NCBI GenBank assembly: GCA_021734645.1
Contig: JAIPIQ010000001.1
Location: 3,422 to 67,421 of the forward strand
Direction of reading: 5' to 3'
DNA length: 64,000 nucleotides
From: Fidelibacterota bacterium
GTDB taxonomy: Bacteria > Verrucomicrobiota > Kiritimatiellia > JAIPIQ01
Under the pieces are notes generated by a model. That model was given only the letters and a program-made list of their open reading frames with translations, searched no databases and had not been told where the DNA came from. How positions within the stretch are numbered: position 1 is the first letter of the stretch; every line of letters starts with the position of its first letter. Made by a program: the position numbers and the translations under genes. Shown piece after piece: positions 2,104 to 58,106 of this stretch.

Positions 2104-5859
<3,756 letters not shown>

Positions 5860-11010: not shown

Positions 11011-13137
11011 ATGAGGATGGTCGCAGAGAAACACAGCATGCGCGCCGCGCCGGCCCCCGCCGGCGGGGAAGCGGCTGAGTGTGCTCTGGCGCTGATCCGC
11101 AATTTTGGCATTGTGGCCCACATTGACGCGGGCAAGACCACGGTCTCGGAGCGGATGCTGTTTTACACCGGCAGGACGCATCGCCTGGGCGAGGTGCATG
11201 AAGGCACCGCGACCATGGATTGGATGGACCAGGAGCAGGAGCGGGGCATTACCATTGTCAGCGCGGCGACAACCTGCCAGTGGCGCGGCTGCCAGTTCAA
11301 TCTGATTGATACGCCGGGCCACGTGGATTTCACGGCGGAAGTCGAGCGATCCCTGCGGGTGCTGGACGGCGCCGTGGGCGTGTTTTGCGGGGTGGGCGGC
11401 GTGCAGCCCCAGTCGGAAACGGTCTGGCGGCAGGCGGACAAGTACCAGGTGCCGCGGCTGGCCTTTGTGAACAAGCTGGACCGCAAGGGCGCGCGGCTCG
11501 ACGCGGTGGTGGCCGAGCTGCGCAGCAAGCTGGCGGCGCCGGCCGTGGCGGTACAATTGCCCCTGGGCGCGGAAGAACACTTTGCCGGCGTGGTGGATTT
11601 GGTGACCGAAGAAGCCGTGACCTTCGACGAGGAGAGTTTTGGCGGCAAGGTGCTGCGGACCCCCGTGACCGGGGCGCTGGCGGAGCGCGCCGCGGCGGCC
11701 CGCCAACAGTTGGTGGAAGCGGTGGCGGAGTGCGACGAGGAGCTGCTCGAAGCGTACCTGGCGAATGCGCAGGTCAGTCCGGCGGCCTTGCGGGCGGCCC
11801 TGCGGCGCCAGACGCTGGCCCTGCGGATTGTGCCGGTGCTGTGCGGCGCGGCCTTCAAGAACAAGGGAATTCAGCCGCTGATGGACGCGGTGGTGGATTA
11901 CCTGCCGGCGCCCACGGAAGTGCCGCCGATCGCCGGCGTGCACCCCAAGACCGGTGAGCCGGAAACCCGGCCGGCCAGCGAGCAGGCGCCCCTGGCCGCC
12001 CTGGTCTTTAAAATCGCCACCGATCCCTTCGTGGGCAAGCTGGCCTTCGCCCGGGTCTACAGCGGGCGGCTGGCCCGCGGTCAGAATATTTTCAACCCGC
12101 GCTTGCAGAAGCGTGAGCGGGTGGGACGGATCGTGCGGCTCCACGCCAACCAACGCGAGGAAGTCGAGTCCCTGGGCGCCGGCGAAATCGGCGGCCTGGC
12201 AGGCATCAAGCTCTTTACGACCGGCGACACGCTCTGTGTCGAAAACAAGCCCCTGGTCCTCGAAACCATCCATTTCCCCGAGCCCGTGATCGCCATGGCC
12301 ATCGAGCCCCATTCCCAGGCCGACCGCGCTGACCTGGACGCGGCCCTGCGATCCTTGTCGGATGAGGACCCGACCTTCCGGATCGCGACAGATCCGGAGA
12401 CGGGTCAGACGTTGATCCGGGGGATGGGCGAGCTGCATCTGGAGGTCTTGAAGGAGCGCATGCTGCGCGAGTTCAAGGTGCGGGCGACGGCGGGCCGTCC
12501 CATGGTGGCCTACCGCGAAACGATTACGGTTCCGGCGCAGGGGACGGAGCGCTTCGAGCGCGAGCTGGGCGGGCATGGGCAATTCGCGGAAGTGACCGTG
12601 GCGGTAACGCCGCGGGACCGCGGGACCGGCAACGAGATCCAATGGCAGGTTTCGCCCGAGCTGATTCCCCACGCTTTTCGCGCCGCGGTGGGGGCGGGCA
12701 TCGAGGATGCCCTGGCCACGGGCGTGGTCGGCAATTTCCCGCTGGTGGACGTGGCAGTGGCCATTGTGGGCGGCCAGTTTCATCCGGTGGATTCCTCCGA
12801 GCTGGCGTTCCGGTCGGCGGCGGTGTTGGCGCTGCGCCAGGCGGCGCAGGCGGCGCAGCCCGTCCTGCTGGAACCCATCATGGAACTGGAAGTGATCACC
12901 CCCGAGGCGCACCTCGGGGACGTGTTGGGCGATGTGAGCGCCCGGCGCGGGCGGGTGCGCGAGTTGGACGCCCGGGCCGACGCCCAGGTAATTACAGCGG
13001 ACGTGCCGCTGGCGGAGCTGTTCGGTTATACGACGGCGCTGCGTTCGCTGACAAAAGGCCGGGCGTCCTGTACGCTCGAACCACGGTTATTCGAGGTAGT
13101 GCCGCCCGCCATGCAGGCGGCCATTTTGAACCGATGA
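11011..13137 (+). CDS. fusA: Elongation factor G (start codon uncertain: 11011 or 11038)
   Basis: G-domain AHIDAGKTT...DTPGHVDF...NKLD. 708 aa. Located after rpsG. Confidence 0.92.
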
Positions 13138-44794: not shown

Positions 44795-45595
44795 TCAGGC
44801 TGGGGGCGCCAGCCAGCGGCGCACAAACAGGAGCACGCCCGCGCCCAGTAGCAGGGACAGGGTCCCCGGCTCGGGAACAATATCGAAGGAGAGTGTCGGT
44901 CGTTTATAGTCCTCGTCCAGCGTGACGGAATTCTCGTCATTCTGGAACCACCAATTTCCCGGACTGATGTCGTTCCACGGGCCGTCGGGATAGTCCTTGT
45001 GCCATATGCGCAGCGCGAAGGAAACGTGGGCGGCCGAAGTGCCCGCATAATCGTTCAGATACGACGTCAACGCGTTGTTATTCGTTGATACCTGAAAGAA
45101 AGTGCCGGCGTTGGCCACAACCAGCGATGACGCGCCATTCATCTCCCCGATTTCACTGCCAATGGTCCCCTGTCGGTTCCAGGTGATATTGGTGGCGGTG
45201 GTGGTATCGGTGCCCCAGTCCTCGTCCCCCCAGGGGGTTGTCCCGTCGGACTGCACATTGCTCGCCTCATAGAGATACAACCGACCGTCCGAGGTAGACC
45301 CGCCACGCGCCCACTCGAAGTGCGCGTTGGCGATGGATTGGCCGGCGGACAGGGCGGGTAGCTCGAACTTGAGCCAGATGCGAGTGGTAGACCTGCCCGT
45401 AGTGTTCGTCATCCACTCATGCTGATTGATGTAGTTATTCCGGGCGTTGGCGTCCGTGTTGTCCGGAGTGTCCGCTCTAACCACGGCATCCTCACTGCAG
45501 TACAAGGAGTAATCGAAATCGTATACATCCGCCACCGCGGTGAATGTCAGCGCCCACGCCACCGTCCCCAGTATCCAGCACATGTTCTTGCGCAT
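44795..45595 (-). CDS. PEP-CTERM-anchored secreted protein
   Basis: Signal peptide. C-terminal VPEPGTLSLLLGAGVLLFVRRW (PEP motif, TM segment and basic tail). Confidence 0.75.
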   Translation of the reverse strand: MRKNMCWILGTVAWALTFTAVADVYDFDYSLYCSEDAVVRADTPDNTDANARNNYINQHEWMTNTTGRSTTRIWLKFELPALSAGQSIANAHFEWARGGSTSDGRLYLYEASNVQSDGTTPWGDEDWGTDTTTATNITWNRQGTIGSEIGEMNGASSLVVANAGTFFQVSTNNNALTSYLNDYAGTSAAHVSFALRIWHKDYPDGPWNDISPGNWWFQNDENSVTLDEDYKRPTLSFDIVPEPGTLSLLLGAGVLLFVRRWLAPPA

Positions 45596-45672: not shown

Positions 45673-46956
45673 TCATCCCGGTGGTGACAAGTTCTTTCTG
45701 GTTTGTTGTTGCGCATTAGTGGTGCGATATTGCGCAAGGGACACCGGAGGTTCGCGCAGATCCCAGACGAGGCCGAGGCGTTCGAGGGCGCGCAGGATGG
45801 CGTAGGTGATATCCATTTCGCCGGGTCGGAAGCCCTGGCGGGTGGCAATGGGGTAGCGATGGTGGTTGTTGTGCCAACCTTCGCCGAACGTCAGCAGGGC
45901 GAGGATCAGGTTGTTGCCGCTGGTATCCGGGGTGTCGTAGGGGCGGCGCCCGACCAGATGCATGAGGGAGTTGATGCAGAAGGTTGCGTGATAGACCAGG
46001 ACGGTGCTCAGGAAGAAGCCCCAGGCGAGCATCTGGGGGCCGGTGACGTTCCCGGCGGGCCGCGTGGCGGCCAGGGCGGCGCCCAGGCCATACAGGGCGC
46101 CGGCCAGGAGCAGGGGGGGCAGATAGGCGTGGCGGTCAAGCCAGCGCAGTTCGGGAAACCGGGCGAAATCGGGAATGCGTTCGAGGCGGGTGGCCGTATG
46201 GCGGGAACAGAGCAGCCAGCCGATATGCGCCCACCAGAAACCGTCCCGCACGGGCGAATGGATATCCGCATCCTGATCGGCATGCTGGTGGTGGTGACGG
46301 TGATGGGCGGCCCACCAGAGGGGGCCCAGTTGCGCGGCGGTGGCGCCGATGAACGCCAGGACGAACTGGAAGCCGCGGCTGGTGCGGTAGCTCTTATGGG
46401 CGAAGTACCGGTGGTAGCCGCCGGTCAGGGCGAAGACACGCAGGGCATAGAGCAACAGGCAGGCGCTGAGCGCGGCCCAACTGAAACCGACCCAGAACAC
46501 GCTCAGGGCGGCCAGGTGCATCAACAGCAGGGGGGCGGCATCGCGGACGGTGATGCGTTCGTCCGGGCGGCGCGCGCGCCGGGGCGCCGCCGGGGCTTCG
46601 GGATCCGGCGCGCTCGTCAAGCGCTGGCCCGTCTCCAGCTCCAGTTCCGCGGCCCGGCCCGCCGGCAGTTCCAAGGCTTGGCGGGTGCCGCGCGGCGCCC
46701 GGATCAACCGGCCCGGCGGGACATCGGCCCGGATCTTCAGGATTCGGCCCTCGCGGTCCAGGAATACGGCATCAAGCGGGAAGCGCATGGCCAGAGTGTG
46801 CAGGCTGCCGCCGGGCACAAACAACAGGCCGGCCTCCGGCGGGCACGGAAAGCCGAGCCAGCCGCGCAGGCGCGCGCTCAAGGTCCGCGCCCTGCGCACC
46901 CCGCGCAACAACCCAACGCCGTCCCGGTCTATCCTGAGCTTGTCCATACGTTGCAT
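45673..46956 (-). CDS. DUF192 (COG1430) domain fused to a membrane acyl-CoA/lipid desaturase
   Basis: N-terminal ~110 aa match the DUF192 pattern. C-terminal HRYFAH, HHRHHH and HNNHH histidine boxes. Confidence 0.78.
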   Translation of the reverse strand: MQRMDKLRIDRDGVGLLRGVRRARTLSARLRGWLGFPCPPEAGLLFVPGGSLHTLAMRFPLDAVFLDREGRILKIRADVPPGRLIRAPRGTRQALELPAGRAAELELETGQRLTSAPDPEAPAAPRRARRPDERITVRDAAPLLLMHLAALSVFWVGFSWAALSACLLLYALRVFALTGGYHRYFAHKSYRTSRGFQFVLAFIGATAAQLGPLWWAAHHRHHHQHADQDADIHSPVRDGFWWAHIGWLLCSRHTATRLERIPDFARFPELRWLDRHAYLPPLLLAGALYGLGAALAATRPAGNVTGPQMLAWGFFLSTVLVYHATFCINSLMHLVGRRPYDTPDTSGNNLILALLTFGEGWHNNHHRYPIATRQGFRPGEMDITYAILRALERLGLVWDLREPPVSLAQYRTTNAQQQTRKNLSPPG

Positions 46957-47042
46957 TATTCTCTAGCGCCGCCCAGCCCCGAACGCCAGCCCAATCTGTC
47001 CGCTCGACAGTGCCGGCCGACATGCTATGCTGGCCCCGGAAT

Positions 47043-47127
47043 GGGCGAGTGGTGGAATTGGCAGACACGCAAGACTTAGGATCTTGTGCCGCAAGGCGTG
47101 CGGGTTCGAGTCCCGCCCCGCCCACCA
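47043..47127 (+). tRNA. tRNA-Leu (anticodon TAG), type II with a long variable arm, CCA encoded
   Basis: Manually folded. One A-C mismatch in the acceptor stem, T-loop TTCGAGT, anticodon loop CTTAGGA. Confidence 0.8.
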
Positions 47128-47134
47128 ACCCCCG

Positions 47135-47160
47135 GGGCGAACAGAACCCCGTGTTCGCCC
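47135..47160 (+). terminator. Stem-loop (8-bp stem GGGCGAAC/GTTCGCCC, 10-nt loop) directly after tRNA-Leu. Could be a tRNA 3' terminator or an attachment-site remnant.
   Basis: Seen in sequence. Confidence 0.3.
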
Positions 47161-47176
47161 AAAGGACTTTGTGAAC

Positions 47177-48772
47177 ATGTATGAGATGAAGTTCGCCATG
47201 CAGGGCGCGCAGGACAACGGCGAGTTCTTCACCCCGCCCGCGCTCGTCAAGACCCTCGTCAACGTCATCGAGCCGGACCACGGCATCGTCTTCGATCCCG
47301 CCTGCGGCTCAGGCGGCATGTTCGTCCAGTCCAGCCACTTCATCGAGCGCCGTGGCGACCGCGCCGCCCACAAGGTCACTTTCTACGGGCACGAGTACAA
47401 GACGAGCAACATCCGGCTGGCTCTGATGAACCTCGCCGTCCACGCCCTCGAGGGCTCGATCAAGGAGGCCAACACCTTCTATGACGATCCGCACGAGCTG
47501 TTCGGGAAGTGCGACTTCGTCATGGCCAATCCGCCGTTCAACGTGGACAAGGTGGATGCAGGGAAGATCAGGACTGACCGACGCCTGCCGTTCGGATTGC
47601 CGGGCGTGAACAAGGACAAGCAGGTCAGCAACGGGAACTACCTGTGGATCTCGTTCTTCTGGAGCTACCTGAACCAGACCGGCCGCGCCGGGTTTGTCAT
47701 GTCGTCCCAGGCCAGCAGCGCTGGCCACGGCGAGGCCGAAGTCCGCCGCAAGCTCGTCGAAACCGGCGACGTGGACGTGATGATCTCCATCCGCTCCAAC
47801 TTCTTCTACACGCGAACCGTGCCCTGCGAACTCTGGCACTTCGACAAGGGCAAGCCCGCCGCCCGGCGCGACCAGGTGCTGATGATTGACGCCCGGAACA
47901 TCTATCGCAAGGTCACCCGCAAGATTTACGACTTCTCCCCGGAGCAGCAGCAGAACCTCGCCGCCATCGTCTGGCTTTACCGCGGCCAGCCCGACCGCTT
48001 TGTCGGGCTGGTGCAGCAGTACCTCGACCGCACTCTCGCCGAAGCCGCCGCAATAGCCGCTAAGATCGAATCCTTCCGCAAAGCGTGCGCCGCCCTCGCA
48101 ACTGCCGCCGCACCCTTTTTCAAGACCCTGCCCAAAGATTCGCCCCTGCGCGATGGGATCAAGGAACGTGACGATGCGGCCAAGGTTTGTTTCCAAGGCC
48201 TGGATGATCTGATTGCGCGAGTCTCCAAGGATTGGAAGAACTCCTGCGAACCTAACCTCACCGCACAGAAGAAACGGCAGGCCAGCCTGGACGAGCTCGC
48301 CGCTGCCTGCCGGGACCTGGTGAAGGACGCCGACCTCGTCTACAAGCTCGCAGCCCGCGTCTCGGACGCAGCAGAAAAGGATGCCGGGGCCAAGGAGCAC
48401 GACGACTGGGACGGCCGCGCCATCGGGCGGCTGGAGAAAGAACTCGACGCCCGCCGCAAGGAACTGGTCGAACAACTCAAGACCGCCGCCTACTTCGAGC
48501 GGCAGGCCCACTGGCTCCTCTCGCGCTTTCCGGACGGGAAGCTCGTCGCCGTCCCCGGCCTCGTGAAGCTGGTGGACCGCAAGGAAATCGAAGCCGCCGA
48601 CTGGAGCCTCACCCCCGGTCGCTACGTCGGCGTCGCCCCCGTCGAGGACGACGAGGACTTCGACTTCGAGCAGACCCTGCGCGACATCCACACCGAACTC
48701 GCCGACCTGAACAAGGAGGCGGCGGAGTTGGCGGCGACGATTCAGAAGAACTTCGAGGGGCTGGGGATATGA
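47177..48772 (+). CDS. hsdM: Type I restriction-modification N6-adenine DNA methyltransferase subunit, lacking the N-terminal HsdM_N domain
   Basis: Begins at MYEMKF (equivalent to DMYEGLL of EcoKI M). Motif X FFTPP, motif I FDPACGSGGM, motif IV NPPF and the long coiled-coil C-terminal tail ...LTPGRYVG... Confidence 0.85.
   Translation: MYEMKFAMQGAQDNGEFFTPPALVKTLVNVIEPDHGIVFDPACGSGGMFVQSSHFIERRGDRAAHKVTFYGHEYKTSNIRLALMNLAVHALEGSIKEANTFYDDPHELFGKCDFVMANPPFNVDKVDAGKIRTDRRLPFGLPGVNKDKQVSNGNYLWISFFWSYLNQTGRAGFVMSSQASSAGHGEAEVRRKLVETGDVDVMISIRSNFFYTRTVPCELWHFDKGKPAARRDQVLMIDARNIYRKVTRKIYDFSPEQQQNLAAIVWLYRGQPDRFVGLVQQYLDRTLAEAAAIAAKIESFRKACAALATAAAPFFKTLPKDSPLRDGIKERDDAAKVCFQGLDDLIARVSKDWKNSCEPNLTAQKKRQASLDELAAACRDLVKDADLVYKLAARVSDAAEKDAGAKEHDDWDGRAIGRLEKELDARRKELVEQLKTAAYFERQAHWLLSRFPDGKLVAVPGLVKLVDRKEIEAADWSLTPGRYVGVAPVEDDEDFDFEQTLRDIHTELADLNKEAAELAATIQKNFEGLGI
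48704..48772 (+). repeat. hsdM 3'-terminal segment, copy A (authentic end). Its TGA overlaps the ATG of the next gene.
   Basis: Roughly 69 nt, repeated at 49863-49928 and 50673-50741. Confidence 0.8.
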
Positions 48773-49797
48773 GCGACGCACCCGCAAAACTTCCTGGTGA
48801 CTATGCCGCGCTACTGGTCGAGATCAAGGAACGCGTCCGCTCCGCGCAACTCGCCGCTTTCCGGGCGGTCAACAAGGGGCTGGTCGGGCTGTATTGGGAT
48901 ATCGGGCTGATGATTGTCGAACGGCAGGCCGGGGAAACATGGGGGAAGGCAATTGTCCAACAACTGGCTGGAGATTTGCAGCGGGAGTTCCCGGACGTCG
49001 GCGGGTTTTCGGCCTCCAATCTGTGGCGGATGAAGGGATTCTACGAGGCGTATCGCGCCTCCGGAAAACTCGCACCACTGGTGCGAGAAATCGCCTGGAG
49101 TCACAACCTCATCATCTTGGAGCGGTGCAATGAACCGCTGGAGCGCGAGTTCTACCTGCGGATGACCCGCAAATTCGGCTGGTCCAAGAACGTGCTGATC
49201 CACCAGATCGAGAACCAGACCTACGAAAAGAGCCTGCTCGGCCAGACCAACTTCGATAAGGTCTTGACGCCCGAATTGCGCGCCCAGGCCAAGCTGGCCG
49301 TCCGGGATGAGTACAGCTTTGACTTTCTGGAATTGAGCGCAAAGCATTCCGAACGCGAACTCGAACGGGCACTGATTGCGCGCATCGAGCATTTCCTCCG
49401 CGCCATGGGCGGCATGTTTGCCTTTGTCGGCAGTCAGTTCCGGCTGGAAGTCGAGGGCAAGGAGTATTTCATAGACCTGCTCCTGTTCCATCGCCGCCTC
49501 AAATGCTTGGTCGCCATCGAGCTCAAGATCGGCGAGTTCGAGCCCGAGTTCATCGGCAAGATGCAGTTCTATCTGACGGCCCTGGATAAGCAGGTTCGCG
49601 AGGAGGGCGAGAACCCGGCCATCGGCATCATCCTCTGCAAGGAAAAGAAACGCACCGTCGTGGAATACGCCCTCGCACCCGTCAACAAACCCATCGGTGT
49701 CGCCACCTACCAGATCGTCAAACGACTGCCCAAAGCCCTCAAAGGCCAACTCCCCAGTCCCGAACAGATCGTCAAATTGCTGGAGGAGGGCGTGTGA
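48769..49797 (+). CDS. DUF1016/YhcG-family PD-(D/E)xK nuclease inserted between hsdM and hsdS
   Basis: DUF1016_N-like N-terminus (LYWDIGLMIVERQ...GFSASNLWRMKGFY). C-terminal D...ELK core (FIDLLLFH...VAIELKIGEF). Confidence 0.82.
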   Translation: MSDAPAKLPGDYAALLVEIKERVRSAQLAAFRAVNKGLVGLYWDIGLMIVERQAGETWGKAIVQQLAGDLQREFPDVGGFSASNLWRMKGFYEAYRASGKLAPLVREIAWSHNLIILERCNEPLEREFYLRMTRKFGWSKNVLIHQIENQTYEKSLLGQTNFDKVLTPELRAQAKLAVRDEYSFDFLELSAKHSERELERALIARIEHFLRAMGGMFAFVGSQFRLEVEGKEYFIDLLLFHRRLKCLVAIELKIGEFEPEFIGKMQFYLTALDKQVREEGENPAIGIILCKEKKRTVVEYALAPVNKPIGVATYQIVKRLPKALKGQLPSPEQIVKLLEEGV

Positions 49798-49862
49798 AAG
49801 ACGGCAAATCATCCTGCCGCGCCAATGGTGCAAGACACACTGGCACAATTATATCGCCCGCC

Positions 49863-49928
49863 GCCCTGAAGACTCAGGTGGCGGAACTGGCCGCGACGAT
49901 TCAGAAGAACTTCGAGGGGCTGATGTGA
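49863..49928 (+). repeat. hsdM 3'-terminal segment, copy B (partial, diverged). Encodes ...AELAATIQKNFEGLM*
   Basis: A 30-nt identical core, gcgacgattcagaagaacttcgaggggctg, shared with copy A. Confidence 0.8.
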
Positions 49929-49940
49929 AGAGGGTCATGC

Positions 49941-50017
49941 AAAGGACAAAAAGGACGAAAAGGACAAAAAACGCCGCGGCGCCACTCTTTTTCGTTTCTC
50001 TGGTCCTTTTTGTCCTT
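49941..50017. repeat. Long imperfect inverted repeat / hairpin (AAAGGACAAAAAGGAC ... CGCCGCGGCG ... GTCCTTTTTGTCCTTT) immediately upstream of the four-helix-bundle gene
   Basis: Seen in sequence. The palindromic centre lies at 49972-49981. Confidence 0.6.
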
Positions 50018-50031
50018 TCAGTCCCTTTCTT

Positions 50032-50619
50032 ATGGAGTTCTCCATGACAACCGACGGCTTCATTCCGGCGCATGGCGGGTTCCAGGCATTGAAATCCTAT
50101 CAGAAGGCGGTCATTGTCTATGATGCCACCGTGCGATTCTGCGACCGGTTCATCGCCAAGCGTGGCGACCGCACGCGCGATCAGATGATCCAGGCGGCGC
50201 GGTCGGGCAAGCAGAACATTGTCGAGGGCAGCCAGTTCTCCGGCACATCTAAGGAAATAGAATTGAAGCTGACCAATGTGGCCCGCGCCAGCCTGGCGGA
50301 GCTGGCGGAAGACTACCGCGACTTCCTGCGCTTACGTGGCGCGGAGGAATGGCCAGCCACGCATCCGTATGCCCAACGCCTGCGCGCGCTCAACCGGCAG
50401 CCCGGCGCCGGCTATGAGACGTTTCGCAAAGGGATCGAGCATGAAGACCCACTTATCGCCGCGAACGTCATCCTGGGACTGACCCGCGTGACCTGCTTCC
50501 TGCTGGACCGCCAGCTCAAGCATCTGGAAAAGGCCTTTATTGAAGAGGGCGGTTTGCGCGAACGCATGACCCGCGCCCGCCTCGACCGCCGAGCCCAACA
50601 ACGAGGCCACACCCCATGA
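50032..50619 (+). CDS. Four-helix-bundle protein (TIGR02436 / 23S rRNA intervening-sequence protein family)
   Basis: KSYQKAV...NIVEGSQFSGTSKEIELKLTNVARASLAEL family signature. Flanked by the direct repeat TCCTTTTTGTCC (50004-50015 and 50636-50647). Confidence 0.72.
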   Translation: MEFSMTTDGFIPAHGGFQALKSYQKAVIVYDATVRFCDRFIAKRGDRTRDQMIQAARSGKQNIVEGSQFSGTSKEIELKLTNVARASLAELAEDYRDFLRLRGAEEWPATHPYAQRLRALNRQPGAGYETFRKGIEHEDPLIAANVILGLTRVTCFLLDRQLKHLEKAFIEEGGLRERMTRARLDRRAQQRGHTP

Positions 50620-50672
50620 CCCCCACCCCCTTCCGTCCTTTTTGTCCCTTGGCCCCAAATGACGCCCCGGCT

Positions 50673-50741
50673 GACCTGAACAAGGAGGCGGTGGAGTTAG
50701 CGGCAAAGATTCAGCGGAACCTCGAGGGGTCGGGGATATGA
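50673..50741 (+). repeat. hsdM 3'-terminal segment, copy C (diverged, ...DLNKEAVELAAKIQRNLEGSGI*). Its TGA overlaps the hsdS ATG.
   Basis: Aligned by eye to copy A. Confidence 0.8.
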
Positions 50742-51910
50742 AGTGGCGACCGCACCAACTCCGAGATCTCTGCTGTCAGGTAGTCTCCGGCGGAACACCG
50801 TCAACAAGCCAATCTCATTTCTATGGCGGCCCAATTCCATGGCTCCGAACACAGGAGGTCACTTTCAACCGTATAGCGGAAACAGAAATGACCATCACGG
50901 AGGATGGATTGGCGAACTCAACAGCCAAATGGGTCCCCGAGAACAGCGTCATCGTCGCGATGTACGGCAACTCTGCAGGCCGCGTTGCAACCAATTTGAT
51001 TCCCCTGACCACGAATCAAGCCTGCTGTAACCTCATTATCGATTCCAGCAAAGCTGACTACCGCTTCATCTTCTACCGGCTAATGCTCGATTACAACGTG
51101 CTGCACCAGATGGCAAAAGGGGCCGCTCAAAACAATCTCAACGCAGGACAGATCAAAGCATACACAATACAAGCGCCCTCCGTGTCTGAACAGGGCGCGA
51201 TTGCTGAAGTTGTGTCCGCCTACGACGATCTGATCGAAAACAACCGGCGGCGGATGAAGCTGCTGGAGGAGGCCGCCCGGCAGTTGTACCGCGAGTGGTT
51301 CGTCCGCCTCCGCTTTCCCGGCCATGAACGCGCCAAGATCAAGAATGGCCTGCCCGAGGGGTGGGAGAGACAACCATTGGGAGACTTGGCCGATGTCACG
51401 ATGGGCCAAAGTCCCGAATCATCGTACTACAATGAGACTGGCGAAGGGCTTCCATTCCACCAAGGCGTTGCCGATTTCGGAGATCGTTTTGTTTCTCACC
51501 GCGTATTCACCACAGCCCTGAACCGTCTTGCTGAACCCAGCGATATCCTTTGTAGCGTTCGCGCTCCGGTTGGTCGGCTCAATCTGACGCTCGACAAGAT
51601 AGTGATCGGGCGGGGCCTCTCCGCTATCCGAAGTCGCACAAACCATCAGTCGCTGTTGTTCTACCAACTGCGGAACCACTTCTTCAAAGAGGATTTGATC
51701 GGCGCGGGATCAATCTTCGCATCGGTAACGAAAGCGGAGTTTCTTCGACAGGAGATTCTTGTCCCACCCAAGCATGTAGCCGATGCATTCGAAGATGTGT
51801 CCCGCCCACTTGACGACCAACTGCGGCTACAGAATGAGCAGAACCAGAAGCTCCGCTCTGCCCGTGATTTGCTGCTGCCGAAGCTGATGAGCGGGGAGCT
51901 TGCGGTATGA
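50738..51910 (+). CDS. hsdS: Type I restriction-modification specificity subunit with two target-recognition domains
   Basis: 390 aa with a central conserved coiled-coil repeat (IENNRRRMKLLEEAARQLYREWFVRLRFPGHE) and a repeat of it at the C-terminus. Visibly lower GC than the flanks. Confidence 0.87.
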   Translation: MKWRPHQLRDLCCQVVSGGTPSTSQSHFYGGPIPWLRTQEVTFNRIAETEMTITEDGLANSTAKWVPENSVIVAMYGNSAGRVATNLIPLTTNQACCNLIIDSSKADYRFIFYRLMLDYNVLHQMAKGAAQNNLNAGQIKAYTIQAPSVSEQGAIAEVVSAYDDLIENNRRRMKLLEEAARQLYREWFVRLRFPGHERAKIKNGLPEGWERQPLGDLADVTMGQSPESSYYNETGEGLPFHQGVADFGDRFVSHRVFTTALNRLAEPSDILCSVRAPVGRLNLTLDKIVIGRGLSAIRSRTNHQSLLFYQLRNHFFKEDLIGAGSIFASVTKAEFLRQEILVPPKHVADAFEDVSRPLDDQLRLQNEQNQKLRSARDLLLPKLMSGELAV

Positions 51911-52000
51911 GAGGTATGAGGGGTCTGAGGGCCTGCGGAGCAGGGCCATTGGGCTTGTCGCCGCGGAAGCAACCGGTGTATGATTGAACCCGGGTGAGAA

Positions 52001-52780
52001 ATGAGCACGGTACGGACTATAGAATTCGTTCTTCGAGGAAAGGTCGGTGGCGTCGAACTGACGCCGCGCATGATCGGTTTGTCGCAATTTAACGAGTTCA
52101 ACCAGCAGGTCGAAGCGTTTATCGCGGGTTCCCAGCGGGGCAAGCAGAACGAAACGCATGTGGAGGTCGCCGAGGGTTCCTACAAGCTCCGGGTTACGCT
52201 GGCCGCGGCGGCGGCGCTGGCGCTCCAACCGGACCTCGTGCTCATGGCGCGCGACGACGCGCTCGGCGAGCTGGACCCGAAGCGGGCCGAGGTGGTGTCC
52301 AAGTGGCAGGCGTCCGCCCGGCGGGATGACGGCTATGAGTACGAGATCCGGCCCGATCTGGAGGCCCTGCCCAAGGTCATGTTGACGAAAAGGACCGACT
52401 ACCGGATCGGGGCGGCGAGCCCCTGGGTGACGGTCGAAAAATACCTTTTTGGGGTGGTCGAGGACATGGGTGGGGCGCAGAAGGCGAACATTCACCTGCG
52501 GTTGCGCGATACGGGGCAGACCGTGATTGTCGGCGCGTCTCAGGACTTCCTCCGCGATCAGTCCGAAAACCGTGTCTATCGGCAGGCGCTCTTGCGCGTC
52601 AAGGCTGAACAGCACTTCAAAACCGGTCAGTTGCGCAATGTCCGCCTCCTTGCGTTCGAGGATTACGCTCCCTCCTACGACGAGAACGCGCTCAATGCGT
52701 TTTCGTACCAGGGAACTCAGGCGTGGCGCGACATTCCGGATGCCGTGGCTTGGGTCCGCGAGCAGAGGGGAGGTCGCTGA
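52001..52780 (+). CDS. Uncharacterised 259-aa protein embedded between hsdS and hsdR. No recognisable family. Appears to have an internal two-fold repeat.
   Basis: Intact ORF, co-oriented. Its stop lies 3-28 nt before the hsdR start. Confidence 0.5.
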   Translation: MSTVRTIEFVLRGKVGGVELTPRMIGLSQFNEFNQQVEAFIAGSQRGKQNETHVEVAEGSYKLRVTLAAAAALALQPDLVLMARDDALGELDPKRAEVVSKWQASARRDDGYEYEIRPDLEALPKVMLTKRTDYRIGAASPWVTVEKYLFGVVEDMGGAQKANIHLRLRDTGQTVIVGASQDFLRDQSENRVYRQALLRVKAEQHFKTGQLRNVRLLAFEDYAPSYDENALNAFSYQGTQAWRDIPDAVAWVREQRGGR

Positions 52781-52808: not shown

Positions 52809-55800
52809 ATGGCCTACACCGACATCAACAGCGAGGACCGGCTGGTGCAGGTGACCTTCGCCGAGCATCTGGAACGGCAGCTTGGTTGGGAGAGCGTGTT
52901 TGCCTGGAATGAGGAAACCTTCGGGCCTAACGGTACGCTGGGGCGGGCAGACACGCGCGAGGTGGTCCTGACCCGCGATTTGCGGGCGGCTGTGGGCCGA
53001 CTCAACCCCGACCTGCCCGCGACGGCCCTGGACGAGGCAGTACGCACGATGTCGCGACACGACTTCACGCGGTCGTTGCTACAACACAACCAGGATTTCC
53101 ACGGCTTCATGCGCGACGGCGTGCCGGTCTCCTATCGCGACGCGCAGGGAGTTCTGCGCGAGGAACGGGCGCGGGTGCTTGACTTCCGCAACGCGGCGAA
53201 CAACCGGTTCCTGGCGGTGCGCGAGCTGAAGCTCACCAGTCTGCGCATGCCGAGCTACAACCGCCGGGCGGACCTGGTCTACTTCGTCAACGGCCTGCCG
53301 CTGGTGTTTATTGAGCTGAAAGCCGTTTACAAGAATATTCGGGCCGCTTTTGATGGCAACCTGCGCGATTATATGGACGAGCACATCGTCGCCCACGCCT
53401 TTCATCACAATGCGTTTCTGGTCGTCAGCAACGGACACCGCGCCCGGTACGGAGCGATCACCAGTGCGTGGGACCATTTCGCGGAGTGGAAACGCCTCGA
53501 TGAGGCGGACAAGGGCAGCGTCGAGGCAGAGGTGCTCCTGAACGGGATGCTGGCGCATGACCGCCTGCTGGACATTGTCGAGAATTTCATCCTGTTCGAC
53601 GCCAGCAAACCGGGCCAGACCCGCAAGATCGTGGCACGCAACCACCAGGTTCACGGGGTCAACCAGGCGGTGGCGGCGGTGCGGCGGCAGGAGGAGTTGA
53701 AACAGGCGTTTCCGCCTGAGCTGCGCCTGAAGTCCCGCACCATTGAACTGCTGCCGCGCATGGCGGCCGAAGTCTCGCCAAGGGGCGACGCCCTGTACGA
53801 AGATCCGGTCGTCGAGTGGCCCGAGATGGCCGAGTCATTGAGCCTGCTTAAATACGTCGAACCGGCCCATCCGGACCTGGGAAGACTGGGCGTGTTCTGG
53901 CATACGCAGGGCAGCGGCAAGTCCTACTCGATGGCCTTTTTCGCGGAGAAGGTCCGACGCACGATATCGGCCAAGTTCACCTTCCTGCTGATGACCGACC
54001 GCCAGGATCTCGACGGCCAGATATTCGACACGTTCCGCGGCTGCGGCGTGGTGGACGAGAAGTCCCCCCGCGCCGCGACGGGCGAAGATCTCAAGCATCT
54101 CCTGGGAGAGAACCACCGCTATATCTTCAGCCTGATCCACAAGTTCAACCAGGATGTGGACCCGCGCAAGCCCTACAGTCCGCGGGACGACATCATCGTG
54201 ATCTCCGACGAGGCCCACCGGACGCAGGCCGGCAAACTGGCCCGCAACATGCGGCTGGCTCTGCCGAATGCCTCCTTTATCGGGTTCACCGGCACACCCC
54301 TGTTCAAGCACGACCACCTCACCCGGCGCATTTTCGGCACCTACGTCTCGCGCTACGACTTCAAACGGTCCGAGCAGGACGGCTCGACCGTCAAACTCGT
54401 GTACGAGAACCGGGGCGAGAAACTGGGCCTGGCCCGGCTCGACCTTAACGACCGCATCGCCGCCGCCATTGCCAAAGCTGAACTGAACCCCGACGAGGAA
54501 CTCCTGCTGGAGAAACTGCTCGGGCAGGACTACGAGGTGATCACGGCCCGCAATCGCCTCAATAAAATCGCATTCGATTTCGTCGAACACTGTGCCACCC
54601 GGTGGGAATCGGGAAAATCCATGTTCGTCTGCCTGGATAAGATCACCTGCGGCCGCATGCTCAAACGGGTCAGGCGCCTCTGGAAACTCAAATTGGCGCG
54701 GGTGCAGCAGGTGCTCAACCGCAAGCAAACCGCGCTGGCGACCCAGACCAACGAAGACCATCGTGAACGCATTGCAAAAGAAGTGGCTTGGTTGCGAGGA
54801 CAGGCGAACTGGCTGCGGGAGACGATGGTTGAACTCGTGGTATCCGAGGGGCAGAACGAAATCGCCGACTTCAAGAAGTGGGGGATTGACATCCTGCCGC
54901 ACCGGGCGCTGATGAAGCAGGGGTTCGAGACCCCGGACGGCAAGCGGGTGGATGTGGAAACCGCTTTCAAGGATCCGGCCCATCCGTTCCGCGTGGCGAT
55001 TGTCTGCGCCATGTGGCTGACCGGTTTCGATGTCGAATGTCTCTCTACGCTGTACATAGACAAGCCCATGAAGGCGCACACGCTCATGCAGGCCATCGCG
55101 CGGGCCAACCGGGTTTATCCCGGCAAGGATTTCGGCCTGATTGGGGCAAAGGGCTTCGCCAAAATTGCGGCGCTCGCCGACGGCGTGGAAGCGGTCACCA
55201 GCGCCCGAGACGAGGGACGGCGGCGGTTCGAAATCATGGCGCGCCAGGTCTTCGACCGTTTCAAGGCGCTGCTCATGGAACCGGCCGCCTTTGCTTTCGC
55301 AGAGCGGCACGACAACATTGAGGCGATTTACAAGAAACTTCAGGAACGGCGCGATACCGCTGACGTTACCGAGTTGCTCAAGGAACTACAGCGGGTGGTC
55401 AACGAGGCCATTCGTGCCGCCGCCCCCGGCGCCGACCAGGCGGATGCCAAACTTTACGACTTGAGCGCCGTGGACCTGGAAAAACTGCGCGCCGAGTTTG
55501 CCAAGAAGGCCACGCACAAGGCCACGGTCCTGGAGGACATCCGGCAGATCGTCGAAAAGAAACTGGCGCAGATGCTCGCCCGGAACCCGCAGCGCATGGA
55601 CTATTACAAGAAGTACTCCGAAATCATTGCCGACTACAACCACGACAAGGATCGGGTTACGATTGAAGAAACCTTTGCCCGGCTGGTTGACTTGGCTGCG
55701 AGCCTGGACGCCGAATCCCGGCGCGCCGCCGAAGAAGGCCTGAGCGAAGAAGAATACGCCCTGTTCTGCCTGCTACAGAAGGACCGTATCAGCAAGGCTG

Positions 55801-56045
55801 ACCGGGACCGGATCAAACTCGCCAGCCGCCAGCTCTACGATTCGCTCCGAGCATTGCTCGCCCGACGCGAGCAATGGACCCAGAAGGAACAGACGCAGGC
55901 GGAAGTCGAGACCCTGATTCTGGACCACCTGTTTGTGGCGCTGCCGACGCCACCCTACACGGAAGCAGAGAAACAGGCTGCGGCAAAACAGGTCTACCAG
56001 TTCGTCTGGCAGCAATCCGCCAGTGGGGTGTTTGTGGCGGCTTGA
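52809..56045 (+). CDS. hsdR: Type I restriction enzyme endonuclease/helicase subunit (alternative TTG start at 52794)
   Basis: HsdR_N-like N-terminus, Walker A HTQGSGKS, DEAH VISDEAHRTQ, roughly 1078 aa. Confidence 0.9.
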   Translation: MAYTDINSEDRLVQVTFAEHLERQLGWESVFAWNEETFGPNGTLGRADTREVVLTRDLRAAVGRLNPDLPATALDEAVRTMSRHDFTRSLLQHNQDFHGFMRDGVPVSYRDAQGVLREERARVLDFRNAANNRFLAVRELKLTSLRMPSYNRRADLVYFVNGLPLVFIELKAVYKNIRAAFDGNLRDYMDEHIVAHAFHHNAFLVVSNGHRARYGAITSAWDHFAEWKRLDEADKGSVEAEVLLNGMLAHDRLLDIVENFILFDASKPGQTRKIVARNHQVHGVNQAVAAVRRQEELKQAFPPELRLKSRTIELLPRMAAEVSPRGDALYEDPVVEWPEMAESLSLLKYVEPAHPDLGRLGVFWHTQGSGKSYSMAFFAEKVRRTISAKFTFLLMTDRQDLDGQIFDTFRGCGVVDEKSPRAATGEDLKHLLGENHRYIFSLIHKFNQDVDPRKPYSPRDDIIVISDEAHRTQAGKLARNMRLALPNASFIGFTGTPLFKHDHLTRRIFGTYVSRYDFKRSEQDGSTVKLVYENRGEKLGLARLDLNDRIAAAIAKAELNPDEELLLEKLLGQDYEVITARNRLNKIAFDFVEHCATRWESGKSMFVCLDKITCGRMLKRVRRLWKLKLARVQQVLNRKQTALATQTNEDHRERIAKEVAWLRGQANWLRETMVELVVSEGQNEIADFKKWGIDILPHRALMKQGFETPDGKRVDVETAFKDPAHPFRVAIVCAMWLTGFDVECLSTLYIDKPMKAHTLMQAIARANRVYPGKDFGLIGAKGFAKIAALADGVEAVTSARDEGRRRFEIMARQVFDRFKALLMEPAAFAFAERHDNIEAIYKKLQERRDTADVTELLKELQRVVNEAIRAAAPGADQADAKLYDLSAVDLEKLRAEFAKKATHKATVLEDIRQIVEKKLAQMLARNPQRMDYYKKYSEIIADYNHDKDRVTIEETFARLVDLAASLDAESRRAAEEGLSEEEYALFCLLQKDRISKADRDRIKLASRQLYDSLRALLARREQWTQKEQTQAEVETLILDHLFVALPTPPYTEAEKQAAAKQVYQFVWQQSASGVFVAA

Positions 56046-56780: not shown

Positions 56781-58106
56781 ATGGAACGACCCAACATACT
56801 GTACATTCTGGCGGACGACCTGGGCTGGGGCGATTTGAGTCTGCACGGCTCGCCCATTCGCACGCCGAACATTGACCAGTTGGCGCGGGAAGGGGTCGAG
56901 CTGACGCAGCACTATGTTTGCCCCATGTGCACGCCGACGCGCGCCTCGCTGTTGACGGGCCGGTATCCGAGTCGTTTCGGCCCCCATGGCACGGTGCCGT
57001 CGAATGCGCCGGTGTTCCCGGACGGCTACCAGACGCTGGCCACGATCCTGCGCGACGCGGGGTACGACACGGGTCTGTTCGGCAAATGGCATTTGGGCTC
57101 CGCCCCGCAGTATGGTCCGAATCAGTACGGGTTCAATACGGCCTACGGCAGTCTGGCGGGCGGGATTGATCCGTACAGCCATCGGTACAAGCGCGGCGAG
57201 TTTTCGGTGGCGTGGCATCGCAACGGCACGCTGGTGGAAGAGCGGGGGCATGTCACCGATTTGATCCTGAACGAGGCCCGGGAGTGGATCGAGACCCGGA
57301 ATCAGCCCTGGTTCTGTTATGTGCCGTTCACGGCCGTGCATATTCCCATCAAGCCGACACAGGAGTGGATGGCGCGGTACTATCCCGAGCAGTTCGACGA
57401 CGATCCGTTGAAGGACCGTTCGTACAAGATGTATGCGGCCTACACCAGCCATATGGATCATGCCATCGGGCAACTGCTCGAGACCCTCGAGCAATTGGGC
57501 CAGCGCGAGAACACGATCATCGTGTTTTCTTCGGACAATGGCGCGGTCAACGAAACACCGCTGCATGCCACGGACCAATATCCCGGTTGGCAGGAAGCGT
57601 ATCCGCGGCTGGGATCGAACGCGCCCTGGCGCGGGGTCAAGGCACAATTGTACGAGGGCGGCATCCGCACGCCCACCCTCGTCAACTGGCGCAGTCGGCT
57701 GACGCCGGGGCGGATGGAACACCCCGTGCAGGTCACGGATTGGATGCCCTCGTTCAGCGCGCTGGTCGGCGCGCCGCCCAAGGAAGATCCCCGGTACGAT
57801 GGCCGGGACATCTGGCCCTTGATCACGGGGGAAACCAAGACGCCCGCGCCGCGGCATCTGTTCTGGAACTTCAAGGGCGATCAGCATCTCGGGTTGCGGC
57901 TGGGCGACTGGAAACTGATCGTCAACCACAAGCAGGGCCATTCGAAACAGGAGCTGTTCAACCTGGCGGACGATCCGTATGAGCAGAATGACCAAGCCAG
58001 CGATCGGCCCGACAAGGTCGCGGAGCTGGCGGCGTTGATTGCGGCAGAGCGGCAAGCGGACAATTCGTCGGCCCGGTCTGATGTGGCCGGGCCCCGGATG
58101 CCCTAA
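56781..58106 (+). CDS. Arylsulfatase-family sulfatase with no obvious signal peptide
   Basis: CPMCTPTRASLLTGR (C-x-P-x-R formylglycine signature) and the sulfatase N-terminal LADDLGWGD. Confidence 0.88.
   Translation: MERPNILYILADDLGWGDLSLHGSPIRTPNIDQLAREGVELTQHYVCPMCTPTRASLLTGRYPSRFGPHGTVPSNAPVFPDGYQTLATILRDAGYDTGLFGKWHLGSAPQYGPNQYGFNTAYGSLAGGIDPYSHRYKRGEFSVAWHRNGTLVEERGHVTDLILNEAREWIETRNQPWFCYVPFTAVHIPIKPTQEWMARYYPEQFDDDPLKDRSYKMYAAYTSHMDHAIGQLLETLEQLGQRENTIIVFSSDNGAVNETPLHATDQYPGWQEAYPRLGSNAPWRGVKAQLYEGGIRTPTLVNWRSRLTPGRMEHPVQVTDWMPSFSALVGAPPKEDPRYDGRDIWPLITGETKTPAPRHLFWNFKGDQHLGLRLGDWKLIVNHKQGHSKQELFNLADDPYEQNDQASDRPDKVAELAALIAAERQADNSSARSDVAGPRMP

Follow-up and report, generated by a model that had tools for sequence, protein, structure and literature searches.

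How can a gene be inserted between two translationally coupled genes without the loss of the operon? We know of no explanation so far, and the question is raised by a type I restriction-modification (R-M) locus in a stretch of 64,000 nucleotides (hereafter the window) from a Fidelibacterota bacterium (GTDB lineage Bacteria; Verrucomicrobiota; Kiritimatiellia; JAIPIQ01; assembly GCA_021734645.1, contig JAIPIQ010000001.1, positions 3,422 to 67,421 of the forward strand). The locus lies on the + strand and extends from a tRNA-Leu gene to a tRNA-Glu gene (56189), with the gene order hsdM, DUF1016/YhcG nuclease gene, four-helix-bundle gene, hsdS, an open reading frame (ORF) of 259 aa and hsdR; it belongs to type I by its N6-adenine methyltransferase domain, its HsdS with two target-recognition domains and its HsdR helicase-nuclease. 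The second and third of these genes, referred to as cargo below, lie between hsdM and hsdS, and the 3' end of hsdM is found in three copies around them. We consider it rather probable that such embedded cargo is tolerated because the hsdM end, together with the hsdS start signals that it holds, is duplicated on both sides of it, in two events in the case of the window.

One gene end in three copies

A repeat search of the window yields one family of direct repeats, 72 nt in length, which comprises the true end of hsdM (copy A), a copy behind the DUF1016 gene (copy B, 81% identical) and a copy immediately before hsdS (copy C, 86% identical). In an ungapped comparison, B agrees with A in 58 of 72 positions and C in 62, with the next best match in the window reaching 38/72 and the best match in 100 simulated windows (Markov-1, composition-matched) reaching 40/72. 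In addition, a profile of the hsdM terminus (its last 78 nt, taken from 62 relatives) detects both copies, with E-values of 1.3e-9 for B and 5.7e-14 for C. These values bear out the claim of an earlier annotation made from the letters alone (the sequence-only reading) that the hsdM 3' end is present three times. To chance similarity of G+C-rich coding sequence, or to an assembly artefact, we assign a vanishingly small probability. The high G+C content of the window is the only point that speaks for chance, and chance is excluded by the simulated maximum and by the profile E-values. As for an artefact, the same pattern is seen in independent assemblies, the copies are in register with the reading frames and with the stop/start overlaps, and they have diverged from each other and are therefore not collapsed or duplicated reads.

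Between A and B, 9 of 33 positions differ in the 5' part and then 30 nt are identical (P = 0.016 for such a run), the identical core that had been noticed before. At the ends of A and C, the stop codon overlaps the ATG of the DUF1016 gene (48769) and that of hsdS (50738), respectively, as ATGA, again in agreement with the earlier account. At the latter junction (50738-50741) the stop of copy C also closes a small ORF (bridge ORF 3, below), and GAGGGG lies 8 nt upstream; that is, the hsdS start overlaps the preceding stop and its Shine-Dalgarno sequence lies within the preceding ORF, as in a coupled junction. Copy B had been described as partial. It reads AALKTQVAELAATIQKNFEGLM and is a complete variant terminus, not a truncated copy, because ...ELM endings are natural in the HsdM family, being found at the real hsdM end of one related locus (L046) and in the hsdM-end remnant of another (L044). 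The stop of B overlaps a GTG at 49925 and not the start codon of the four-helix-bundle gene; the statement that each copy abuts the next start thus holds for A and C, whereas B is linked to the start at 50044 via bridge ORF 2. For the 62-nt spacer between the DUF1016 gene and B, no homologues were found in other loci.

Extra copies at occupied junctions only

The relatives come from a single scan with the HsdM protein over species-representative genomes, which gave 80 loci. The 70 loci whose hsdM 3' end is complete form the comparison set, in which a locus with more than 300 nt at the hsdM/hsdS junction is counted as a cargo locus. A 4-nt overlap of hsdM with hsdS (ATGA or GTGA) is present in 52 of the 70 loci. 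Ahead of hsdS these 52 share a conserved TTYGAGGRGYTGGGRRTATGA, which consists of a GAGGRG Shine-Dalgarno sequence, an 8-nt spacer and the start codon, and none of them (0/52) has an extra copy of the hsdM end. The single junction expected of cargo-free loci by the sequence-only reading is therefore what is found. Cargo is present at the junction in 16 loci, and profile-significant extra copies are identified in 8 of these (the window, L001, L009, L031, L033, L044, L045 and L079), all of them on the + strand and downstream of hsdM. The last copy reaches the hsdS ATG exactly in seven of the eight, the copy in L044 stopping one base short. Five more cargo loci (L026, L028, L030, L039 and L043) have a minimal remnant of 17-22 nt, which is precisely the Shine-Dalgarno sequence, the spacer and ATGA. 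The difference between cargo and overlapping loci is significant for the profile matches (8/16 vs 0/52, Fisher p = 1.7e-6) and more so with the short remnants included (13/16 vs 0/52, p = 1.8e-11), and the check suggested by the sequence-only reading, whether other genomes show the repeated junction around other cargo, thus has a positive outcome.

The boundaries of the remnants follow one rule for DUF1016, four-helix-bundle, Y1_Tnp, DUF559 and PIN cargo alike, with the 3' boundary fixed at the hsdS ATG and the 5' boundary variable (17-105 nt). The cargo itself is diverse, including DUF1016 proteins of two distinct lineages, four-helix-bundle proteins, an IS200-like Y1 transposase/RAYT, DUF559, a PIN toxin-antitoxin and a zeta toxin. 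Among the window, L039 and L001, HsdM is 86-87% identical, yet the cargo differs: the window has DUF1016 and the four-helix-bundle gene, L039 a RAYT-like gene and L001 the four-helix-bundle gene only. Since loci with such similar HsdM carry different cargo, and since the nearest outgroups of the three have a direct overlap, the junction is a recurrent insertion site and the copy of the hsdM end its footprint. A further pair, L031 and L033, has HsdM proteins 92% identical, and DUF1016 genes that are 40% and 72% identical to that of the window, respectively.

Some related observations are worth recording beside these. L039, the closest relative of the window hsdM, has a 368-aa IS200-like (Y1_Tnp) ORF at 11584-12690 with ATGA overlaps to both hsdM and hsdS, and the ends of this ORF are made of repeated G/S/A-rich units. 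In L045, three tandem units of ~185 nt (4201-4642) lie immediately before hsdS and adjoin an IS200-like/RAYT gene; they contain repetitive extragenic palindromic (REP)-like sequence and form ATGA-linked mini-ORFs, each closing with a remnant of the hsdM C-terminus. Extra copies of the hsdS 3' end are found past hsdS and cargo in L004 (13113-13144 and 14416-14482), L059 (7181-7252) and L064 (3370-3436 and 10081-10144). This points to a duplicated-terminus footprint of the same kind between hsdS and hsdR, though the copies may also belong to further, partial hsdS genes.

A relay of overlapping reading frames

From hsdM to hsdS the window has an unbroken chain of ORFs with six links, each of them a 4-nt stop/start overlap, in the order hsdM-ATGA-DUF1016-GTGA-bridge 1-GTGA-bridge 2-ATGA-four-helix-bundle-ATGA-bridge 3-ATGA-hsdS. 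A strict overlap relay is also found in L001, L028, L031, L033 and L039, by various arrangements: L028 and L039 have cargo in direct overlap with the genes on either side, in L033 a 16-codon mini-ORF serves as the link, and in L031, as well as in L030, the cargo ORF itself enters the remnant and ends ...EELGV* on the hsdS ATG. Bridge ORF 2 has a counterpart in L001 with the same arrangement and 38 sense codons, or 40 with start and stop counted, the indels against the window summing to 3 nt, and bridge ORF 3 has counterparts of 41 codons in L083 and 84 codons in L001. The bridge ORFs are thus retained in L001 and L083 though indels are present, these being multiples of 3.

The four-helix-bundle cassette

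The second cargo gene encodes a protein of the PF05635/TIGR02436 family, which includes Avd of diversity-generating retroelements (DGRs), with a TIGR04258 suffix domain in addition; the TIGR02436 match is above its cut-off, and the PF05635 match, at 26.5 bits, is under the gathering score of 33.8. Comparison with L001 and L081-L084 places the true start, MTTDGFIPAHGG, at 50044. Upstream of the gene lies a hairpin that folds at -46.7 kcal/mol (z = -4.6), with compensatory changes in the stem in L001, and for which Rfam has no family, returning sub-threshold microRNA/riboswitch noise only. For the motif GGAC(N5), which builds the hairpin, 7 occurrences were counted against 0.9 expected. When metagenomes were scanned with the four-helix-bundle protein, 48 loci were obtained; relatives of the protein are typically bracketed by 9-nt GGAC(N5) arrays in the order array(+), array(-), ORF, array(-). 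The same architecture is seen in unrelated contexts in L081, L086, L087, L089, L093 and L098, with arrays of up to ~35 units each in L086 (3284-3631, 3672-3978 and 4592-4869); in L096, L104 and L114 the parts are arranged likewise, with arrays of other 9-mer motifs. In L081 the cassette is 90% identical to that of the window and stands behind an unrelated non-R-M gene, and because the homology ends at the array ends, the stretch 49941-50651 is a discrete, context-changing unit.

The flanks of the cassette differ between its contexts. In L001, where HsdM is 86% and the four-helix-bundle protein 90% identical to those of the window, the order is hsdM, hairpin, four-helix-bundle gene, remnant and hsdS, and upon alignment the real hsdM end matches copy B and the remnant matches copy C. 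This order recurs in two metagenomic loci, L083 and L084, in which the hsdM-end repeats around the gene measure 31 nt and ~105 nt, respectively. Outside R-M, the 3' end of an aminotransferase-like gene is repeated in L088 (3835-3879 and 4822-4866; 45 nt at 91%, possibly extending to ~80 nt), where the gene downstream has its own ribosome-binding site; in L114 the repeated 3' end (2267-2322 and 3179-3234; 56 nt at 96%) belongs to a DnaK-like gene encoded on the opposite strand. L089, a sister locus that shares the aminotransferase context, lacks the repeat. Most of the ~25 four-helix-bundle loci outside R-M have no flanking duplication.

These flanks raise the question whether the duplication is made by insertion machinery, i.e. 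by non-autonomous mobile cassettes that enter behind a stop codon with a long target-site duplication (about 45-105 nt), selection for the hsdS start signals then explaining only the persistence of the copies. We regard this as possible, and as the less likely course. The cassette has discrete, array-defined ends and recurs 90% identical outside R-M in L081; it is flanked by 3'-end duplications of three unrelated genes, namely hsdM (window, L083 and L084), the aminotransferase-like gene and the DnaK-like gene; the remnant of L084 is nearest to its own hsdM end; and no remnant is longer than ~110 nt. On the other side, the cassette encodes no recombinase or transposase, most non-R-M loci are without duplication, the same remnants surround unrelated cargo (DUF1016, Y1_Tnp and DUF559), their length is not fixed, and some are of another hsdM allele type. 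The marks of a classical transposon (target-site duplications of 2-15 bp, fixed length, a transposase) are absent as well, the repeats measuring 17-105 nt and neither cargo gene of the window being a transposase.

A bolder proposal, which we put forward tentatively and do not expect to hold as a whole, goes further. The four-helix-bundle unit, with its ORF in GGAC(N5) arrays, would be an undescribed small mobile cassette with a layout like that of rRNA intervening sequences, inserting behind stop codons and duplicating 45-105 nt of the target 3' end. In type I R-M operons the repeats, present also around DUF1016, IS200-like and DUF559 cargo, would make the embedding reversible: a circle of cargo and one hsdM end could be excised and re-enter related hsdM termini, with ATGA coupling regenerated on both sides, which would amount to an integrase-free cassette system for defence genes.

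The resemblance of PF05635 proteins to Avd also brings to mind a decayed DGR-like module, or one without reverse transcriptase (RT), in which the gene 3' end would be the variable region, followed by the hairpin, an Avd-like gene and a repeat resembling the template repeat. This is very unlikely. The order of the parts is that of a DGR, the hairpin follows directly on copy B, and a likeness between Avd and proteins of PF05635 is described (PMC10053308); however, the six ORFs scanned from hsdM to hsdR gave no RT match in Pfam or NCBIfam, the mismatches between A and B, B and C, and A and C involve all four bases and not adenines only, and the copies also flank DUF1016 and other cargo without an Avd-like gene. 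The identification as a DGR was rejected on the missing RT match among these six ORFs and the mismatches that are not adenine-specific.

A proposed history of the junction

The reading that we prefer, duplication of the hsdM end on both sides of the cargo, starts from what is observed, namely the repeats, their restriction to cargo loci, the conserved minimal remnant and the ORF relay. In this family the last ~20-100 nt of hsdM would play a double role, as the HsdM C-terminus (...IQxNFEGLG[IV]*) and as the initiation region of hsdS, in which a GAGGRG Shine-Dalgarno sequence is followed, after a spacer of 8 nt, by the ATG that forms ATGA with the hsdM stop. Because the hsdM end does both jobs, a gene between hsdM and hsdS would survive only with this segment on both sides, one copy completing hsdM and the other feeding ribosomes to the downstream gene. 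In a first event the ~710-nt four-helix-bundle cassette would have entered the junction, giving an L001-like state flanked by B and C, and in a second the DUF1016 gene would have come in at the hsdM stop, with A and B on its two sides; the bridge ORFs with their ATGA/GTGA overlaps would then pass translation from hsdM via both cargo genes to hsdS. Sequential cassette insertions, as proposed from the sequence before, are plausible because the locus L001, with the four-helix-bundle gene only, lines up with B, cassette and C of the window (L083 and L084 represent the same state). As to their order, the cassette first and DUF1016 later is probably the most economical history.

The duplication itself may have come from recombination anchored in the conserved hsdM terminus, either by homology-facilitated illegitimate recombination or by Campbell-type integration of a circle with cargo and an hsdM end, and the copies would afterwards have been shaped by selection for the hsdS start signals and by gene conversion between the repeats. 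The same repeats would permit precise loss of the cargo, with the coupled hsdM-hsdS pair restored. The earlier proposal that the junction was duplicated with each insertion agrees with the finding of copies in cargo loci only; duplication in situ is not the sole reading, because the remnants of L045, L044 and L009 are closer to other hsdM alleles and because A and B form a mosaic. Specifically, L045 has an hsdM that ends ...SELF* with a TAG stop and three remnants with the canonical ...ELGI*/ATGA ending, L044 has an ...EELM* remnant that differs in type from its resident hsdM, and the remnant of L009 is identical to the resident hsdM over 33 nt and then diverges. Recombination at the hsdM terminus together with selection is favoured since several copies look mosaic and no remnant is longer than ~110 nt, with the long target-site duplication as its main rival. 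The occupied/empty pair L028/L037, whose hsdM ends are ~93% identical to the very end, is uninformative on the recombination breakpoint. A dedicated modular insertion mechanism at the M/S junction, which the sequence-only reading had envisaged, is not established.

Could the copies instead be leftovers of whole second and third hsdM genes, i.e. of tandem or fused type I loci cut down by deletion until only the start stretch of the next gene was kept? The remnants of L045, L044, L009 and L001 do resemble hsdM ends of other lineages, and the substitutions in B and C look coding-type, being synonymous or conservative. We nevertheless judge this unlikely: among ~18 cargo loci the remnants do not exceed ~110 nt, intermediates that retain several hundred nt of hsdM are not seen, and the cassette boundaries are identical in R-M and non-R-M contexts.

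Several points weigh against duplication on both sides as the condition for tolerated cargo. L055 has cargo and no visible remnant. The duplications in L088 and L114, which come without a downstream start signal, hint at duplication generated by the insertion mechanism; they are the strongest such hint, and insertion may create the duplication, which is then kept only where useful or recent. In L084, residues specific to the lineage (IKK) are found both in the remnant and in the hsdM end of the locus, which would favour duplication in situ or gene conversion over import. With regard to the relay, chains with at least 6 links begin at 1-8% of long-ORF stops in this 65% G+C window. Because chance chains are fairly common, the case for the relay is drawn mainly from its conservation in L001 and L083 and from its exact arrival at the hsdS start, and the chain was dropped as a stand-alone statistic. 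The earlier claim that coupling was preserved stands as far as the stop/start overlaps are concerned, which are kept from hsdM to hsdS; actual translational coupling through the bridge ORFs is what the sequence would predict. Finally, the operon of the window may no longer function. The HsdM_N region, i.e. the N-terminal ~165 residues, is missing, a point that the sequence-only reading had passed over: HsdM aligns to residues 164-693 of the 693-aa HsdM of L039, its homology starts 53 nt past the end of tRNA-Leu (region 47043-47215), and the ~165 N-terminal codons are found nowhere in the whole window. In nearly all relatives with upstream contig the frame stays open ~120-290 codons further, typically 160-220. 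Because the N-terminal part is missing and tRNA-Leu stands in its place, the operon is rearranged and may be inactive. The genes hsdS and hsdR and both cargo genes are intact.

Features of the locus

The features are collected in Table 1. The DUF1016 protein matches PADLOC PDC-S02 (PDLC04831) at 1.2e-147 over nearly the full model, residues 3-340 on model positions 3-339 of 346, and its gene sits inside the defence operon, in the hsdM-hsdS interval and on the same strand; PDC entries in PADLOC are candidates only, and the anti-phage role of PDC-S02 is accordingly that of a candidate. The G+C content is 0.64 in hsdM, 0.58 in DUF1016, 0.60 in the cassette and 0.55 in hsdS, against 0.65 in the flanks, differences that are compatible with a mosaic origin of the locus. 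The ORF of 259 aa (ORF259), without a match in Pfam, NCBIfam or PADLOC, has a counterpart at the same position in L039 and may be another embedded gene. A search of a plasmid collection with the window HsdM gave distant matches only, all of them without the C-terminal region. An island attachment site at tRNA-Leu was considered and rejected, the 3' end of tRNA-Leu not being repeated elsewhere in the window. Farther away, the ORF at 44795-45595 (- strand) ends with what we take to be a PEP-CTERM-like sorting signal (PEPGTLSLLLGAGVLLFVRRW...), and the ORF at 56781-58106 is presumably sulfatase-like; the two would point to a host of the Verrucomicrobiota/PVC type, which agrees with the closest HsdM relatives.

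Table 1. Features of the type I R-M locus, in window coordinates (an asterisk marks a stop)
Feature	Position	Strand	Evidence or remarks
tRNA-Leu(TAG)	47043..47127	+	ARAGORN; Rfam tRNA 52.7 bits
hsdM, 5'-truncated	47180..48772	+	Pfam N6_Mtase PF02384 8.7e-61; PADLOC MTase_I 5.6e-192, profile positions 165-653
Copy A, true hsdM 3' end (ADLNKEAAELAATIQKNFEGLGI*)	48701..48772	+	TGA overlaps DUF1016 ATG (48769) as ATGA
Cargo 1, DUF1016/YhcG PD-(D/E)xK nuclease (PADLOC PDC-S02)	48769..49797	+	Pfam YhcG_C 3.6e-62, DUF1016_N 1.6e-44
Bridge ORF 1, 44 codons	49794..49928	+	GTG overlaps DUF1016 stop (GTGA); ends in copy B
Copy B, second hsdM 3' terminus (AALKTQVAELAATIQKNFEGLM*)	49860..49931	+	Stop 49926-49928
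Bridge ORF 2, 40 codons	49925..50047	+	GTG overlaps B stop; crosses hairpin; TGA overlaps four-helix-bundle ATG (ATGA)
Four-helix-bundle cassette, discrete ~710-nt unit	49941..50651	+	Left GGAC(N5) 9-mer hairpin, ORF, right GTCC array
Left hairpin of cassette	49941-49971 paired with 49988-50027		Inverted and direct repeats
Cargo 2, four-helix-bundle gene	50044..50619	+	NCBIfam TIGR04258 5.1e-20, TIGR02436 4.3e-6; Pfam PF05635 7.6e-6
Bridge ORF 3, 41 codons (MTPTPFRPFCPL...LEGSGI*)	50616..50741	+	ATG overlaps four-helix-bundle stop (ATGA); ends in copy C
Right GTCC array of cassette	50628-50651		
Copy C, hsdM 3' remnant (DLNKEAVELAAKIQRNLEGSGI*)	50670..50741	+	Holds hsdS Shine-Dalgarno GAGGGG and ATGA
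hsdS, two target-recognition domains	50738..51910	+	Pfam Methylase_S 1.2e-27, two stretches; PADLOC Specificity_I 5.9e-68
ORF259 (259 aa, no family match)	52001..52780	+	Between hsdS and hsdR; 83% conserved in L039
hsdR	52812..56045	+	TIGR00348 5e-123; Pfam HSDR_N, SWI2_SNF2, T1RH-like_C

Comparison with known systems

Translational coupling of overlapping hsdM and hsdS is documented for EcoKI (Roberts et al. 2012, PMC3510504). The window resembles EcoKI in that the hsdS start overlaps the hsdM end and the ribosome-binding region of hsdS lies within hsdM codons, and differs from it in that the overlap is 4 nt in the HsdM family of the window and 1 nt in EcoKI, and in that the junction is threefold and split by cargo, where coupling would need a relay via cargo and bridge ORFs. 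Genes embedded in multi-gene defence systems, such as PrrC in EcoprrI, are described by Payne et al. (2024 preprint, 10.1101/2024.01.29.577857). At keyword level this preprint has one mention of hsdM (with PrrC) and nothing on junction duplication or coupling, and to that extent the structural footprint seen here (an hsdM end in several copies, an hsdS start region that is preserved, a relay of overlaps) adds to embedding as treated there. Like embedded defence genes, the DUF1016 gene is a PADLOC candidate and the cargo lies within an hsdMSR operon on the same strand, with relatives filling the same slot by diverse small defence-like or toxin genes.

Direct repeats of a gene 3' end call for comparison with mobile elements as well. 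Campbell-type elements, e.g. tRNA-targeting islands, target the 3' end of a gene and bring a replacement copy. The loci studied here are similar in that the insert lies between direct repeats of the target 3' end, the gene upstream is left intact and the donor copy may differ; unlike these elements, they have no integrase, the inserts are 0.7-1.1 kb, the repeat varies in length and the repeat supplies start signals for the downstream gene. The cassette, in turn, shares with 23S rRNA intervening sequences and DGR Avd a PF05635/TIGR02436 ORF bracketed by inverted repeats, with a long stem being possible: the arms at 49940-49963 and 50628-50651 are 88% complementary and bracket the ORF. Unlike an intervening sequence, it is located in a protein-coding operon instead of an rRNA gene and its ORF is flanked by GGAC(N5) 9-mer arrays; in Rfam over 46900-52100, the tRNA is the sole match above the gathering score and there is no 23S rRNA helix context. 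Unlike DGR Avd, it has no RT match at the locus (six ORFs) and no adenine-specific variation.

Implications for type I loci and the PF05635 family

Three elements of the picture are already known: genes embedded in defence operons, those of type I R-M included, the listing of DUF1016 among the PADLOC candidates, and hsdM/hsdS coupling. What appears to be new is the duplicated hsdM terminus with the hsdS start region as a structural signature of embedding, together with its reduction to a minimal Shine-Dalgarno sequence and ATGA, the overlap relay, and the four-helix-bundle cassette with its 9-mer arrays. Embedding in R-M and other immune operons has recently become a discovery principle, and the finding adds to it a searchable sequence footprint, i.e. 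a duplicated upstream terminus with downstream start signals, at occupied junctions only. This footprint marks past insertions and module boundaries in mosaic type I loci, and it predicts upkeep of expression by a coupling relay as well as precise loss of cargo or its exchange between loci. The four-helix-bundle/9-mer-array cassette, which moves between unrelated contexts, is in addition a lead on the long-unexplained PF05635/TIGR02436 family.

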